Part shown: positions 2,820-7,091 of the stretch, piece by piece | Layout: the number at the start of each line of letters is the position of its first letter | Numbering within the stretch: position 1 is the first letter of the stretch | The notes under the pieces: generated by a model | What the model saw: only the letters and a program-made list of their open reading frames with translations | Told to the model about the DNA's origin: nothing | Databases searched by the model: none | Made by a program: the position numbers and the translations under genes | Source: Candidatus Odinarchaeota archaeon | Lineage (GTDB): Archaea > Asgardarchaeota > Odinarchaeia > Odinarchaeales > Odinarchaeaceae | DNA: 7,091 nucleotides | Assembly: GCA_038826135.1 (NCBI GenBank) | Contig: JAWBON010000059.1 | Coordinates: 1-7,091, forward strand | Direction: 5' to 3'

Positions 2820-3875
2820 TTAAATTTTTCCATTCTTTTTAAGGATTAGCAAACCCCCGACTACGGAGACAGCTATTACTCCTCCCAGTATCATAACCAA
2901 TGTTATGAAGAACGGTACAGTTGTTAATATGTTTTCGGTTACACCTATTGTCGGGTCATGGATTAGTGTTCCATTCCATTTAGGATAGCATAGGTACAGT
3001 TTTATACCTGAATCTGTTGTTGAGTAGGATGATGTCACGTTCAATGGACCGAGGTCATCCTGAGCTACATCAACGAATTTGAAGTACGCTAAGGTTGAGT
3101 TGTCTGTTCCTGTGAAGTTTAGCTGCTCTTGTATTTCAGCTGTGTTAATTATTTTCTGCTCCTCTCCTTGATTTATTATTGTTCCCACATCTACACTGTT
3201 ACCTCCAGGTAAGCCTATTCTGAGCTGTGCTTCAGCACCTGTCTGCCATGTGAGATCAAGCCGTAGAGCTAGCATAGTGGCTGGATCGCTGGTCTGCCAG
3301 TCCCATCCGCTCATTATTATATCTACTTTTACTTCATATAAGCCGTGGACAGTAGTGTTTTCCCCATTAACTGTGATTTGTTGATCTATACTATATATGT
3401 GGACTGTCAAGATCATTGTAAAATCTGATAGATTCAACCCGCCTACTGGTATTTTACTGGAGTCTAAGGTGAAATTGCAGCTTACACCATACTCCTCTTC
3501 AACGAATCCGCTGAAATTCCATTGAGAGGAGGCGAAGGAGAATACAGGGTTTCCTGTAGCGGTTTCATTATATTGGAAAACTTGGTCCCCGTTTTCATCT
3601 ATGAACTCTACTAACTGTATAAATTTAAGATGATATATGGTGTTGTTGTCATCCGGGTTCCAGAAGATAATATGGGGCATGTTATCTGAACCGGTACCAG
3701 ACAAGCCTGTGACTCTGACAGTTATTTTATCTGTTTGAAGTGTAAGCTGGCCGCTCTGGTAACTATAAGATATAGGTGAAGGCTGCGCTAATGTGTTGGC
3801 TATAATGGGGGAGACCGTTAATAACGCCATGATGAGAAATCCTAAAACCATAATATTTCTGGTTGTTTTTTTCAT
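2820..3875 (-). CDS. Type I membrane-anchored surface glycoprotein (signal peptide, beta-rich ectodomain, C-terminal TM helix and short basic tail)
   Basis: MKKTTRNIMVLGFLIMALLTVSPIIANTLA signal peptide. GGTGA (3885-3881) lies 5 nt before ATG 3875, so the start is 3875 rather than the track's 3887. Ten N-x-S/T sequons. C-terminal FFITLVMILGGVIAVSVVGGLLIL-KKNGKI anchor. Confidence 0.9.
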   Translation of the reverse strand: MKKTTRNIMVLGFLIMALLTVSPIIANTLAQPSPISYSYQSGQLTLQTDKITVRVTGLSGTGSDNMPHIIFWNPDDNNTIYHLKFIQLVEFIDENGDQVFQYNETATGNPVFSFASSQWNFSGFVEEEYGVSCNFTLDSSKIPVGGLNLSDFTMILTVHIYSIDQQITVNGENTTVHGLYEVKVDIIMSGWDWQTSDPATMLALRLDLTWQTGAEAQLRIGLPGGNSVDVGTIINQGEEQKIINTAEIQEQLNFTGTDNSTLAYFKFVDVAQDDLGPLNVTSSYSTTDSGIKLYLCYPKWNGTLIHDPTIGVTENILTTVPFFITLVMILGGVIAVSVVGGLLILKKNGKI

Positions 3876-3917
3876 TTTGATCACCATATTTATTTTTACG
3901 ATTATTTTAATAATTAA

Positions 3918-4264: not shown

Positions 4265-4558
4265 ATGGGTGGTATAATGGAATTTAAAAAAATAATTTCA
4301 CAGCATAGAAAAGAGTTAGAGAATAGATTTAACGTGGAAAAAATTGGTTTATTCGGCTCTTATGTTAGAGGGGAAGAAAGTGAAGAAAGCGATTTAGATA
4401 TTTTAGTTGAATTTAAAGAACCTATAAGTTTATTTGAATTCATGGAGTTAGAAGAATACTTGGAAGAGATTCTTAAAATTAAAGTTGATGTTGTTTCAAA
4501 AAAAGGTTTAAACCCCTATATCGGGGAGCAAATACTTAATGAGGTAGTTTATGTATGA
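4265..4558 (+). CDS. mntA: Minimal nucleotidyltransferase (MNT) antitoxin, MntA family
   Basis: GLFGSYVRGEESEESDLDILVEF matches the GS-X10-DXD catalytic motif; C-terminal KVDVV. SD GGTGA at 4254-4258. Stop overlaps the next start (ATGA, 4555-4558). Confidence 0.93.
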   Translation: MGGIMEFKKIISQHRKELENRFNVEKIGLFGSYVRGEESEESDLDILVEFKEPISLFEFMELEEYLEEILKIKVDVVSKKGLNPYIGEQILNEVVYV

Positions 4559-4905
4559 AAAAACGTGATTACAAAAACTATCTCAAAGATATTATAATGA
4601 ACATAGAAGATATTGAAGGTTTCATAATAAATATGGATATGGAGGAATTTAAAAAAGATAAGAGAACCAGTAATGCGGTTATTAGAAGCTTGGAGGTAAT
4701 AGGGGAGGCGGCTAAGAAAATACCCCAAGAAATAACTAGTCAATATCCTCAAATACCTTGGAATAAAATTACTGGTATGAGAGATAGATTGATACACGAG
4801 TATTTCGGAGTTGACTTGGAAATAGTATGGAAGACTGTGAAATCTGATTTGCCAGCCCTTAAAATCTTGCTAGAGAATTTACTTAAAAATGATCTAAATT
4901 TATAG
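4555..4905 (+). CDS. hepT: HepT-like HEPN ribonuclease toxin (DUF86 family)
   Basis: AVIRSLEVIGEAAKKIP...IPWNKITGMRDRLIHEYFGVDLEIVW, containing the RX4HXY motif (RDRLIHEY, 4780-4803). Coupled to the MNT gene by a 4-nt overlap. Confidence 0.93.
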   Translation: MKKRDYKNYLKDIIMNIEDIEGFIINMDMEEFKKDKRTSNAVIRSLEVIGEAAKKIPQEITSQYPQIPWNKITGMRDRLIHEYFGVDLEIVWKTVKSDLPALKILLENLLKNDLNL

Positions 4906-4944: not shown

Positions 4945-5256
4945 AAAAACAAAAATGGAAAGTTAGGGTTTAATTATTTCAGGCAGTATACAGCTGGAGC
5001 AGCTATTATCACAGCGTCAATCGAAAAACAGTATGCTATAATTCGAAGACTATTAATTACAGGCGGGATTGTTAAAAATCTAAGAGATGAAATAAAAAAT
5101 TTACCCCTAACATTCTATAAAGGTAAATCCGGTATGAGGGATGTACTAGTGCATGAATATTTCGGCATAGATACTGAGCTCATCTTGAATGTGATAACAC
5201 GTGATTTACCGATTTTTAAAGAACATGTTTTAAAACTATATTCTGGTTTTACTTAA
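4945..5256 (+). pseudogene. Degenerate second HepT/DUF86 copy lacking its N-terminus and start codon
   Basis: Frame open from 4945 to TAA 5254-5256: ...EKQYAIIRRLLITGGIVKNLRDEIKNLPLTFYKGKSGMRDVLVHEYFGIDTELILNVITRDLPIFKEHVLKLYSGFT*. It aligns with the upstream HepT (AVIRSLEVIGEAAKKIP...GMRDRLIHEYFGVD). The conserved IGE and IPW motifs are eroded, and there is no in-frame ATG/GTG/TTG before ATG 5134. Confidence 0.78.
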
Positions 5257-5923
5257 TCCAGATCAGGCGGCTGTCATCCATTATATAGAAGCATTTGCAA
5301 CCGTATTCATGAGCTAACCCGTAGAAGGCCATCGCTGTAAACCGGCTGCCACAGGTTACATCAAAAACGATCTCATTTTTACGCAGATATTTCTCCACCT
5401 CCACTCGAACCGCTTCATACACGCCGTCGAAACTGTAGTTAATAATCCGATCCGGTAAAACCATTATTTGAACATCCTCTGTCAAACCTGAAACCTTGCC
5501 CTTCACAGACTCCGTTCCCAGAAACATATAATTTACCGGTTTAACCCTACTGTTATCTAAAAGAACCTGCCGAATCCTTCTAATAACGTAAGGATCCTCC
5601 TCTAAGGCCCCCATATACATCACAGGCGCTTTAATCCCAAGGTAATCCCGAACAGGCTGAACCATTTGAGGAATGATCTCAGCGAACTTATCCTTCCACT
5701 CCCTTCTACGACGGATAAGACCGGCCTCCTCCAGCTGACTGATATTATGATAAAGCCTAGCATCACTAACCTCATCCAATCCAACCCCGAAACTCTTAGC
5801 CAGCGCGTACCTTAACTGTAAACCAGTCTTCTCCCCCTCTAAGAGCTCCTCTAAAAGAACCCGACGGCTCTCAACCCCACCGATAGCCCGCTCTATAACC
5901 TCAACAGCACTCAACGCAAACAC
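5249..5923 (-). CDS. Transcriptional regulator: N-terminal PadR-like winged HTH plus C-terminal CARF-like (Rossmann) domain
   Basis: wHTH: RRVLLEELLEGEKTGLQLRYAL...SDARLYHNISQLEEAGLI. CARF-like: b1 VMYMGAL, b2 KPVNYMFLGT, helix SFDGVYEAVRVEV, signature IVFDVTCGSRFTAMAF (5342-5362; compare the CARF D-[LIV]-T-x-G-x-[KR] motif, Csa3 DLTMGMR), then CFYI. Start is GTG 5923, or TTG 5914 preceded by GGGTG. Confidence 0.82.
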   Translation of the reverse strand: MFALSAVEVIERAIGGVESRRVLLEELLEGEKTGLQLRYALAKSFGVGLDEVSDARLYHNISQLEEAGLIRRRREWKDKFAEIIPQMVQPVRDYLGIKAPVMYMGALEEDPYVIRRIRQVLLDNSRVKPVNYMFLGTESVKGKVSGLTEDVQIMVLPDRIINYSFDGVYEAVRVEVEKYLRKNEIVFDVTCGSRFTAMAFYGLAHEYGCKCFYIMDDSRLIWIK

Positions 5924-5933
5924 CCATTACAAG

Positions 5934-5958
5934 TCAACTACATATACAATATAGTCGA
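5934..5958. promoter_or_regulatory. Imperfect 25-bp palindrome just upstream of the wHTH-CARF gene; candidate autoregulatory operator
   Basis: TCaACTAcATatacaATaTAGTcGA: pairs TC/GA, ACTA/TAGT and AT/AT are symmetric. Confidence 0.35.
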
Positions 5959-5980
5959 TATCACTTATAATATTTATCCA

Positions 5981-5997
5981 AAAAAATCCTTAAATAA
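5981..5997 (+). promoter_or_regulatory. Candidate BRE-TATA promoter for actin
   Basis: AAAAAATCC-TTAAATAA about 100 nt upstream of ATG 6096. Confidence 0.35.
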
Positions 5998-6020
5998 TAA
6001 TTTTTCGCAAATATTATGTA

Positions 6021-6068
6021 GCTAAATTACGAAAAAAATAAATTTAGCCCGCGGAGGTTAAAAACCTC
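6021..6068. promoter_or_regulatory. Two tandem perfect inverted repeats in the actin promoter/leader
   Basis: GCTAAATT-N12-AATTTAGC (6021-6048) and GAGGTT-AAA-AACCTC (6054-6068). Confidence 0.5.
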
Positions 6069-6095
6069 AAATAAAAATAAATAAAGGTGAAAAAA

Positions 6096-7091
6096 ATGGC
6101 GCAAGCACCCAAAACTGAAGTAGAACCCGCGCCGATAGAGGAAATGGTAACCGGCAAACCCGTAGTAGTAGACAACGGAACCGGCCTCACTAAAAACGGC
6201 TACGCAGGCGAAGACAGACCCAGATCCGTATTCCCCACAATCATCGGTTATCCAAAATACACCTCAATCATGACAGACGTAGAACACTACACAAGAGAAT
6301 ACTATATCGGCGAGGAAGCCCTCGAACTCCGAGGCGTATTAAAACTAGTCTACCCTGTCGAACACGGCATAATAAAAAGCTGGCCCGCCATGGAGAAAAT
6401 ATGGCACTACACATTCTACACAGACATGAGAATAGACCCATCCGAACACCCCATCCTATTAACCGAACCACCCATGAACCCCAGAACAAACCGTGAAAAA
6501 ATGGCTGAAATCATGTTCGAAACCTTCAACGCACCCGCCATATACGTAGCCATGCAAGCCGTCCTATCACTATACGCATCCGGCCGAACAACAGGCCTCG
6601 TAATCGACTCCGGAGACGGAGTAACCCACATCGTCCCCATATACGAAGGATTCGCCCTCACACACGCAATCACAAGAGTCGACCTAGGCGGACGCGACAT
6701 AACCGAATACCTAAGAAGACTCCTCAGACAAAGAGGATACACCCTACAATCCAGCGCAGAAAGAGAAATCGTCCGAGACATAAAAGAAAAACTCTGCTAC
6801 GTAGCCCTAGACCCTGAAAAAGAACTCAAACTAGCACAAAAAGTCAGCGAAATGGAAAAAACCTACATGCTACCAGACGGAGCACCCCTAACAATAGGAG
6901 CTGAAAGATTCCTAGCACCAGAAGTCTTCTTCAACCCAGGAGTAATAGGACTCGAAGCCCAACCACTAGACGAAGTAATCGTCCAAACAATCGAAAAATG
7001 CGACGTAGACCTAAGACGAGACCTATACAGCAACATAGTCCTATCCGGCGGCTCAACAATGTTCCCAGGACTAAAAGAAAGACTAACCAAA
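6096..7091 (+). CDS. Asgard (Lokiactin-type) eukaryote-like actin, partial (332 codons; C-terminus beyond the right edge)
   Basis: My translation: [53 protein letters not shown]...[19 protein letters not shown]...[69 protein letters not shown]...[19 protein letters not shown]...LPDG...IGAERF...[24 protein letters not shown]. All actin ATPase motifs are present, with long stretches identical to eukaryotic actin. SD GGTGA (6086-6090) 5 nt upstream. Missed by the ORF track because it has no stop in the window. Confidence 0.98.

Follow-up and report, generated by a model that had tools for sequence, protein, structure and literature searches.

The window, which is the whole 7,091-nucleotide stretch of DNA that was analysed, ends in two divergent genes. 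The regulator gene (5249-5923, minus strand) starts with GTG and encodes 224 residues up to a stop at 5249-5251, and the actin ORF on the plus strand has starts at 6087 or 6096 and is still open at the contig end at 7091. We assigned the actin start to the ATG at 6096 because a Shine-Dalgarno sequence sits five nt upstream and because the sister genome L003 has this ATG only. The intergenic region is therefore 5924-6095, which bears out the original prediction of divergent wHTH-CARF and actin genes 172 bp apart.

5249-5923, minus strand: wHTH-CARF gene of the CARF_m5 family (ORF call, full-length match to PADLOC PDLC01987, AF2 model; single copy)
5252-5635, minus strand: C-terminal CARF domain, residues ~97-224 (Foldseek, conserved columns, dimer model)
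5672-5881, minus strand: N-terminal PadR/ArsR-like winged helix-turn-helix, residues ~15-84 (sub-threshold Pfam match, RosR profile match, Foldseek)
5924-6095, no strand: intergenic region common to both divergent genes, 172 bp
5950-5969, no strand: 20-bp box TATAGTCGATATCACTTATA, palindromic around GATATC at 5957-5962 and a candidate operator; kept in families f1, f2, f19 and f15, weaker in f8
5980-5997, plus strand: A-run (5980-5986) and TATA-like TTAAATAA (5990-5997), putative BRE/TATA of the actin promoter
6021-6068, plus strand: two small hairpins in the putative actin leader, with arms 6021-6028/6041-6048 and 6054-6059/6063-6068
6086-6090, plus strand: Shine-Dalgarno sequence GGTGA, 5 nt 5' of the actin ATG, seen in the sequence and kept in relatives
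6096-7091, plus strand: lokiactin-type actin gene, first ~332 codons, truncated where the contig stops (Pfam Actin, E 2.7e-106)

The neighbours of the regulator gene in the window are actin and an MNT/HepT pair; the genes around the divergent pair are housekeeping genes, and cas genes are absent from the neighbourhood. Scans of the window for tRNAs and Rfam families gave no matches, and a sigma-70 promoter and terminator scan was set aside as inapplicable to archaeal promoters.

The actin ORF scores 356 bits against Pfam Actin, compared with 46.7 bits for crenactin and 20 bits for MreB, and is thus a eukaryote-type actin of the lokiactin kind rather than a crenactin or MreB. It is the sole actin gene of its own genome; over 335 aa its product shows 100% identity to the actin in a Candidatus Odinarchaeota archaeon record, and with the main actin of related Asgard genomes it shares 72-100% identity in 36 of 41 cases. 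Of all eukaryotic signature proteins in Asgard archaea, lokiactin shows the strongest conservation and the highest expression (PMC12993045).

The wHTH-CARF identity proposed for the product of 5249-5923 was confirmed by profile and structure comparisons. The PADLOC model PDLC01987 ('CARF_m5--CARF') matches residues 6-223 with an E-value of 7.6e-77, and the CARF4, CARF3 and Csx1 models match more weakly; Pfam gave no match to the CARF domain. An AF2 model with a pLDDT of 90.8 allowed both halves to be compared with known folds. For the CARF part, Foldseek returned Can2 (7bdv), Cam1 (8t66), Cdn1, Card1 and Csm6, all with probability 1.00 and E-values of 1e-5 to 1e-4, and for the wHTH part it returned the ArsR/SmtB-type proteins CzrA, SqrR and SmtB (E 2e-4). 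Sequence profiles match the wHTH weakly: Pfam PadR is sub-threshold (E 7e-4, 19.9 bits where the cut-off is 27), as is HTH_20, and NCBIfam ArsR lies below its cut-off (E ~0.1). A profile built from the regulator found the wHTH of haloarchaeal RosR in the PDB (E 0.004); a PDB search with the single regulator sequence returned noise only. The family is small and restricted, with 14 representatives at E <= 1e-30 among 1.84 billion.

In an alignment of orthologues the recognition helix carries nearly invariant residues (S53..Y58.N60..L64). The CARF loop reads D188-V-T-x-G192-x-R194; at least 90% of orthologues have D188 and G192, and most have R or K at 194; retention of these residues at an overall identity of 24-58% argues for a retained ligand site. 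Modelled as a homodimer, the regulator scored 0.56 versus 0.02 for the best of three controls; of proteins solved as same-chain pairs 20 of 30 attain this mark, and of those solved as single chains 1 of 23. Across homodimer runs at least 77% of contacts agree, with a partner pLDDT of at least 85. The predicted interface (residues 189, 194, 197-198, 201-202 and 205) is formed along the helix that follows the D-V-T-x-G-x-R loop. The model combines a CARF-type loop (D/N-x-T/S-x-G-x-K/R after the fourth strand) with a predicted two-fold homodimer. As CARF dimers have already been solved, the score may reflect likeness to them.

The original prediction had proposed asking whether the divergent pair is conserved across Asgard lineages, and the answer is strongly positive. 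Counting genomes in which both genes were located, regulator and actin are divergent neighbours in 85 of 96 Asgard genomes spanning 10 GTDB families, and two more genomes, of family f25, carry them in tandem. Among relatives with a homologue, the regulator is divergent from and adjacent to the best actin match in 20 of 22. Named loci show the arrangement in 28 of 33 cases, covering Odin-, Jord/Frey-, Baldr-, Hermod- and Atabeyarchaeia (class names from record titles), and a phylum-wide search with 80 further genomes found it in 65 of 74, with 52 of 53 in family f6. The genes lie apart in families f26 and f27 and in the Jordarchaeales family f7. Actin is present without a regulator gene in the large families f4 (0 of 31) and f9 (0 of 135 full-length) and in f14, f24 and f29; we looked upstream of actin in regulator-free families for a hidden homologue and found V-ATPase subunit I, an AAA ATPase, an LRR protein, THUMP and DUF1028 instead.

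The spacer had been described as containing three palindromes. It is AT-rich and holds 11 inverted-repeat pairs with a 6-nt seed, a number that by itself is not above chance; only the GATATC-centred box at 5950-5969 is conserved beyond the genus. This box is an imperfect palindrome in which 7 of 10 positions pair, and its consensus, TATAGATGATATCATCTATA, recurs in the otherwise unalignable spacers of four to five families, with one GATATC-centred palindrome per spacer in f1, f2, f19, f15 and f8. Exact k-mer sharing between spacers was uninformative, as A-rich words dominate and shuffles share as many, and we therefore used leave-one-family-out matrices. These recover the box in four families (p <= 0.001 versus shuffles). 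In f8 the matrix chose a site other than the GATATC palindrome and the actin start is ambiguous, so this family counts as weak support only. With our own genus left out of the matrix, 5950-5969 ranks first in the 1.26-Mb genome (19.0 versus 16.9 bits). Hermodarchaeia keep the half-site ATAGAGATGA within an 11-nt inverted repeat. The two hairpins at 6021-6048 and 6054-6068 are kept within the genus only, and compensatory changes in 2 of 14 pairs among four closely related sequences are weak evidence for them.

The position of the box is conserved as well. In the window a TATA-like element begins 27 nt after the GATATC core, and in f2, f19 and f15 an A-run followed by TTTATAAA, TTTAAAAG or TTATTATATAAAG lies 26-27 nt past the core; in all, the core and the TATA-like element on the actin side are 26-27 nt apart in four families and 33 nt apart in one. 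From archaeal promoter architecture, the A-run and TATA-like element would form the actin promoter. Across families the core is 93-205 nt from the actin ATG, but anywhere between 33 and 398 nt from the regulator start. Given the conserved pair and a box at fixed spacing from the TATA-like element, the earlier proposal that the regulator controls its divergent neighbour is well founded, and we infer such control on these grounds.

Could the box serve the regulator alone, with actin sharing the spacer through side-by-side inheritance and its transcription unaffected? In Odinarchaeia the box, 27-46 nt from the regulator GTG, overlaps a TATA-like stretch on the regulator's strand, and most Asgard families express actin without a regulator gene. 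ComB/ComA-type genes on the regulator's other side are also conserved in several classes, and the adjacency may thus be partly plain inherited synteny. Yet families with long spacers hold the box 26-27 nt from the actin-side TATA-like element and 190-400 nt from the regulator start, Hermodarchaeia have a separate conserved TATA-like block near the regulator and away from the box, and the actin-regulator adjacency outlives the remaining synteny, as in Odin, which keeps it although ComB/ComA are gone. We therefore consider it unlikely that the box is an autoregulatory operator only.

Family f7 bears on whether the box belongs to this regulator at all. It keeps the regulator at ~43% identity, with the recognition-helix motif of f19, away from actin; the box was found at neither gene, and the region upstream of the regulator carries a different conserved promoter that has no GATATC. 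With the genes apart and lacking the box, the link must be dispensable or rewired in f7. Matches to the f19-type box in two f7 genomes with separated genes were attributed to chance, as the exact and near matches all lie within coding sequence, at positions that are not homologous. One of these matches sits in a larger ORF that by eye resembles the metallo-beta-lactamase HxHxDH motif.

The f7 arrangement would suit a reading in which the box belongs to another factor or to actin promoter architecture and the wHTH-CARF protein either is a ring nuclease or other nucleotide-processing CARF protein or regulates distant genes. Some proteins that combine CARF and wHTH domains are indeed enzymes, for example Crn1-type ring nucleases. 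Against this, the GATATC box occurs in families whose helix reads S-D-A-[RKM]-L-Y-x-N and is different or absent where the helix differs, as in the spacers of f6, Atabeyarchaeia (f13) and f5; there is no second strong site in the own genome to suggest a distant regulon; and a two-fold dimer, as predicted, suits a palindrome. We regard this reading as highly improbable.

The signal was originally suggested to be a cyclic oligonucleotide or antiviral alarm, and here the evidence runs mostly the other way. In its specific form, the CARF domain would sense cyclic oligoadenylate from a type III CRISPR system or another antiviral cyclase, so that infection would reprogram actin expression and cell shape. 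The nearest structural matches are CARF effectors that bind cA3, cA4 or cA6, the ligand loop is conserved, and Cas10 is present in some carriers of the pair: G009, G020, G031, G039, G040 and the same-genus sister genomes G002 and G003. On the other hand, Cas10 went undetected in 13 of the 20 pair-carrying genomes examined, including the closed genomes G017 and G027, G001 (97% complete, six contigs), G010 and G030 (98%) and the own genome (93%). SMODS or DAC cyclases were not found in the own genome, G012 or G027, and in the examined loci the regulator gene never adjoins cas genes, unlike the canonical CARF genes of G011, which sit beside Cas10. The pair is thus independent of Cas10, and because most carriers lack Cas10 the ligand need not be a Cas10-made cyclic oligoadenylate. 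An infection alarm as the input is improbable, and the regulator probably serves as a dedicated switch of actin expression that is independent of CRISPR.

The reading that we favour, at a probability of roughly 0.6 for the model as a whole, is that of a dimeric, putatively ligand-gated one-component regulator acting locally on actin transcription from the box at 5950-5969. The product of 5249-5923 would be a homodimeric transcription factor whose N-terminal PadR/ArsR-like wHTH binds the 20-bp palindrome and whose C-terminal CARF domain dimerises and may hold, on the two-fold axis, a small ligand of nucleotide type. With its centre ~30 bp upstream of the actin-facing TATA-like element, the box lies at about -60 from the putative start site, and a regulator bound there would adjust how strongly the single lokiactin gene is transcribed; because the site is upstream of the BRE/TATA, activation is the likelier mode. 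In the compact Odinarchaeia spacer the regulator would also be expected to control itself, since the box overlaps its own putative leaderless promoter. Across much of the Asgard phylum, regulator and actin have been passed on as one unit. A broader version, which we put forward tentatively as possible but not probable, is that Asgard archaea have a housekeeping CARF branch in which the CARF domain reads an endogenous metabolite or nucleotide messenger from a source other than Cas10 and sets the actin level accordingly, with the unit going back to an early Asgard ancestor.

We know of no account of how lokiactin expression is controlled. The literature searched, with the source paper of the CARF classification outside its scope, held nothing relevant on CARF proteins with actin in Asgard archaea, on CARF_m5 function or on the lokiactin promoter. 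Protein (224 aa), site (20 bp) and promoter together make the regulator-operator-actin unit a cloneable handle on this question, amenable to in vitro tests with no need to culture the organism. The unit would also be a case of CARF sensing apart from CRISPR defence, present in this genome and in many lineages in which Cas10 was not detected, which raises the question of its ligand. If the ligand is an endogenous nucleotide, the scope of CARF signalling would widen and, in the closest lineage to eukaryotes, cell state would be tied to the cytoskeleton. Should the housekeeping-branch reading be true, this would be the first dedicated cytoskeleton regulator in the archaeal relatives of eukaryotes.

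Among known systems, Csa3 of Sulfolobales (Csa3a/Csa3b) is similar in design: it joins a dimeric CARF sensor to a winged-helix DNA-binding domain, as is predicted for our dimer, and it binds palindromic sites in the promoters of neighbouring genes, as the regulator would. The regulator wHTH gives weak PADLOC matches to Csa3, whereas its CARF part matches no Csa3 model. The domain order is reversed, since Csa3 has its CARF domain at the N-terminus and its wHTH at the C-terminus, and Csa3 is associated with CRISPR-cas loci whereas the regulator is unlinked to cas genes or arrays and its probable target is a cytoskeletal housekeeping gene. The CARF_m5 group (PDLC01987) is the family to which the regulator belongs, but the model only catalogues that family. 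The CARF domains of Can2, Card1, Cam1, Cdn1 and Csm6 share the fold over ~130 residues (E ~1e-5) at 10-19% identity, and a two-fold dimer like theirs, through the helix after the ligand loop, is predicted for the regulator; unlike these effectors, its output is a wHTH, and it has no nuclease or membrane effector domain. The wHTH itself matches the fold of CzrA, SqrR and SmtB and aligns with PadR/RosR in both fold and recognition-helix pattern (L-Y-x-N-L), although its Pfam and NCBIfam scores stay below the cut-offs. A divergent gene with a palindromic operator is the layout typical of PadR, RosR and ArsR-SmtB regulators, and the layout here is alike, but where those proteins sense through a metal, redox or phenolic-acid site, the sensor of this regulator is a CARF domain.

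The window is a complete 7,091-bp contig of a 1.26-Mb genome (105 contigs; completeness 93%) and holds a wHTH-CARF regulator gene divergent from an actin gene, with the following features.

5249-5923 (-): regulator ORF, 224 aa, GTG start
5924-6095: spacer between regulator and actin, 172 bp
5950-5969: 20-bp palindrome (core GATATC, 5957-5962), the candidate operator or "box"
5980-5986: A-run, on the inferred actin promoter side
5990-5997: TATA-like TTAAATAA, facing actin
6087/6096 to contig end (+): actin, an open reading frame cut by the contig end

The actin starts at ATG 6096, since it is preceded at 5 nt by a GGTGA RBS (6086-6090) and is the only one of the two starts present in a sister genome; the spacer is therefore 5924-6095, and the 172 bp of the original prediction is exact given this start. 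The actin (Pfam E 2.7e-106) scores far above crenactin or MreB, is the one copy found by a search of its own genome, and shares 72-100% identity with the main actin in 36 of 41 related genomes. For the regulator, Pfam gives only a PadR/HTH_20 wHTH below threshold, and residues 6-223 match PADLOC PDLC01987 'CARF_m5--CARF' (E 7.6e-77). In Foldseek comparisons of an AF2 model built with 20 orthologues as input (pLDDT 90.8), the C-terminal 130 residues resemble cOA-binding CARF domains of Can2, Cam1, Cdn1, Card1 and Csm6 (E about 1e-5) and the N-terminal 90 residues resemble ArsR/SmtB-type wHTH repressors; in an orthologue profile, the recognition helix aligns to haloarchaeal RosR and PadR proteins. 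Because the PADLOC, Foldseek and profile matches agree, the "wHTH-CARF" designation is correct.

A regulator homodimer was predicted with a score of 0.56 vs 0.02 for the best of three controls, a mark reached by 20/30 proteins solved as pairs of one chain and 1/23 solved as single chains; the runs had at least 77% contact agreement and a partner pLDDT of at least 85. As CARF dimers have already been solved, this may reflect likeness to them only. The predicted interface (residues 189, 194, 197-198, 201-202 and 205) adjoins a conserved D-V-T-x-G-x-R loop, and the modeled dimer is compatible with palindromic DNA and with a ligand pocket lying on its two-fold axis. Since the ligand loop is conserved across orthologues, the regulator is predicted to be likely to have a ligand.

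The head-to-head arrangement itself is confirmed, and its conservation across Asgard lineages, proposed as a check on the original prediction, is strongly evident. A regulator homologue is present in 21/40 relatives, and in 20 of the 22 homologue-bearing genomes, counting its own, it is divergent from and adjacent to the best actin match. A separate scan found this layout in 28/33 named loci, from Odinarchaeia, Jord-/Freyarchaeia, Baldrarchaeia, Hermodarchaeia and Atabeyarchaeia; four loci, all Jordarchaeales, have no divergent pair and one is too short to judge. A search of 400 genomes across the phylum recovered full-length orthologues in GTDB families f1, f2, f5, f6, f7, f8, f12, f13, f15, f19, f25, f26, f27 and f33, none in f4 (0/31), f14, f24 or f29, and in f9 (11/135) partial matches only, to other CARF proteins. 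Among 80 further carriers in which the position of actin was determined, the genes are divergent and adjacent in f6 (52/53), f12 (6/6), f19 (4/4), f15 (2/2) and f33 (1/1), in tandem in 2/3 f25 genomes, and apart in f7, f26 and f27. In total, both genes could be placed in 96 genomes, and 85 of these carry the divergent pair, spanning 10 GTDB families. The tandem f25 genomes (G145:C6, G146:C170) have the regulator upstream of actin on the same strand with a gap of ~250-355 nt, and one f27 genome (G150:C5) has the two co-oriented with 3.5 kb between them. In family f3 the main actin match has one in-frame TGA (G007:C44:13404-14399, G018:C185:3713-4693) and further actin-like matches in both genomes are split inside 580-750-aa open frames, for which recoding, an intervening element or an assembly issue are possible.

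Regulator identity declines from 87-93% within the genus to 57-58% within the order and 24-46% within the phylum, as expected under vertical inheritance. Few proteins belong to the family: 1.84 billion proteins yielded 14 representatives at E <= 1e-30. The gene is absent altogether from several of the large families of Asgard archaea; where it is missing, the upstream neighbor of actin is a V-ATPase subunit I, AAA ATPase, LRR protein, THUMP or DUF1028, all unrelated. Part of the adjacency appears to be simple inheritance, because ComB/ComA-type synteny on the other flank of the regulator is also conserved in several classes. The arrangement across the loci covered (L011, L043, L045, L047, L066-L070) may go back to an older block of synteny, in which the actin-regulator pair has persisted best. 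ComB (2-phosphosulfolactate phosphatase) and ComA (phosphosulfolactate synthase) are convergent to the regulator in the scanned f7 loci L011 and L051, and a convergent gene resembling ComB in size and position only recurs in Jord/Frey-, Hermod- and Atabeyarchaeia. In the window this place is occupied by a typical HEPN/MNT toxin-antitoxin pair (4265-4905, +), convergent with the regulator: an MNT-type nucleotidyltransferase (4265-4558, +; NTP_transf_2, E 4.7e-19) overlapping by 4 nt a HepT-like RNase (4555-4905, +; E 6.8e-32). A 355-aa protein without a family (2820-3887, -) is followed by a second wHTH protein (1935-2783, -; 282 aa), whose N-terminus matches DUF7347, HTH_24 and HTH_20, with weak PADLOC Csa3/CasR wHTH matches and no family for its C-terminal 190 aa; ORFs 1167-1679 and 3-1076 have no match in Pfam or PADLOC.

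Evidence beyond adjacency comes from the spacers, which range from 117 to 594 bp and are not alignable between families. Exactly one GATATC with TATAG-type arms (consensus TATAGATGATATCATCTATA) occurs per spacer in f1, f2, f19, f15 and f8. Using leave-one-family-out matrices against composition-matched shuffles, the box was recovered at p <= 0.001 in f1, f2, f19 and f15, and f8 was ambiguous. A matrix from other families alone ranks 5950-5969 first in the 1.26-Mb genome (19.0 bits vs 16.9 for the next site), the spacer being 1.4e-4 of that genome; the same scan gave no second strong box pointing to a wider regulon. In Hermodarchaeia the box takes a variant form, with the half-site ATAGAGATGA retained in an 11-nt inverted repeat whose arms are 10 nt apart, and the GATATC box is absent from spacers of f6, f13 and f5, families with a differing recognition helix. 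Against the link to actin stands f7, a Jordarchaeales family that keeps the regulator with an f19-like helix away from actin, with no box detected at either gene; the separated genes of f26 and f27, the conserved ComB/ComA-type flank and the large families devoid of the regulator count on the same side. Ten Hermodarchaeia spacers (L055-L065) also carry, between box and actin ATG, a near-invariant ~35-nt block (GGGAATAC..CCAGCCTGG..GTATTCC) with nested inverted repeats downstream of the TATA-like element, which might act as a structured RNA leader or as another protein site, and a conserved GCATATAAAT block lies closer to the regulator.

The core lies 93-205 nt from the actin ATG and 33-398 nt from the regulator start, and in four families an A-run and an actin-facing TATA-like element come 26-27 nt after it. 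In archaeal promoters, TBP/TFB recruitment is the usual effect of a site located upstream of BRE/TATA, and repression that of a site over or after TATA; by this analogy, the placement would favor activation of actin. Autoregulation is also plausible in Odin, since in the compact spacer the box lies 27-46 nt from the regulator GTG and the gene, with no visible Shine-Dalgarno element, may be leaderless. Orthologues (window 5923; L003-L021) start mostly with GTG or TTG and rarely ATG, a pattern that, with the missing element, would fit an mRNA that is leaderless or poorly translated. The inferred actin leader has two small hairpins (6021-6068; compared in L003-L005); the sequence of the second varies among four Odin genomes with pairing retained, and 2/14 compensatory pairs in a four-sequence alignment are too few to call an RNA element.

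A regulatory link from regulator to actin is thus well supported by comparative evidence; the cyclic-oligonucleotide or antiviral trigger that the original prediction attached to it is not. Cmr2 and Csm1 models find no credible Cas10 in the genome itself, the sole match being a 245-aa ORF that scores 17.7 bits against the initial ~77 positions of the model, and none in 12 other pair carriers, including closed G017 and G027 and the near-complete G001 (97%), G010 and G030 (98%) and G012 (96%). SMODS and DAC cyclases were likewise not found in this genome, G012 or G027. Cas10 is present in seven carriers, and in G011 canonical CARF genes adjoin it and the regulator family does not. With no credible Cas10 found in 13 of 20 carriers and the regulator not beside it, the regulator is kept independently of type III CRISPR.

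Our literature search returned no paper connecting CARF to Asgard actin, though a passing mention in the paper naming CARF_m5 is possible. The domain order of the regulator is opposite to that of Csa3, and the protein is best read as a one-component CARF-wHTH regulator whose architecture is reversed, whose probable target is cytoskeletal and which does not depend on CRISPR.
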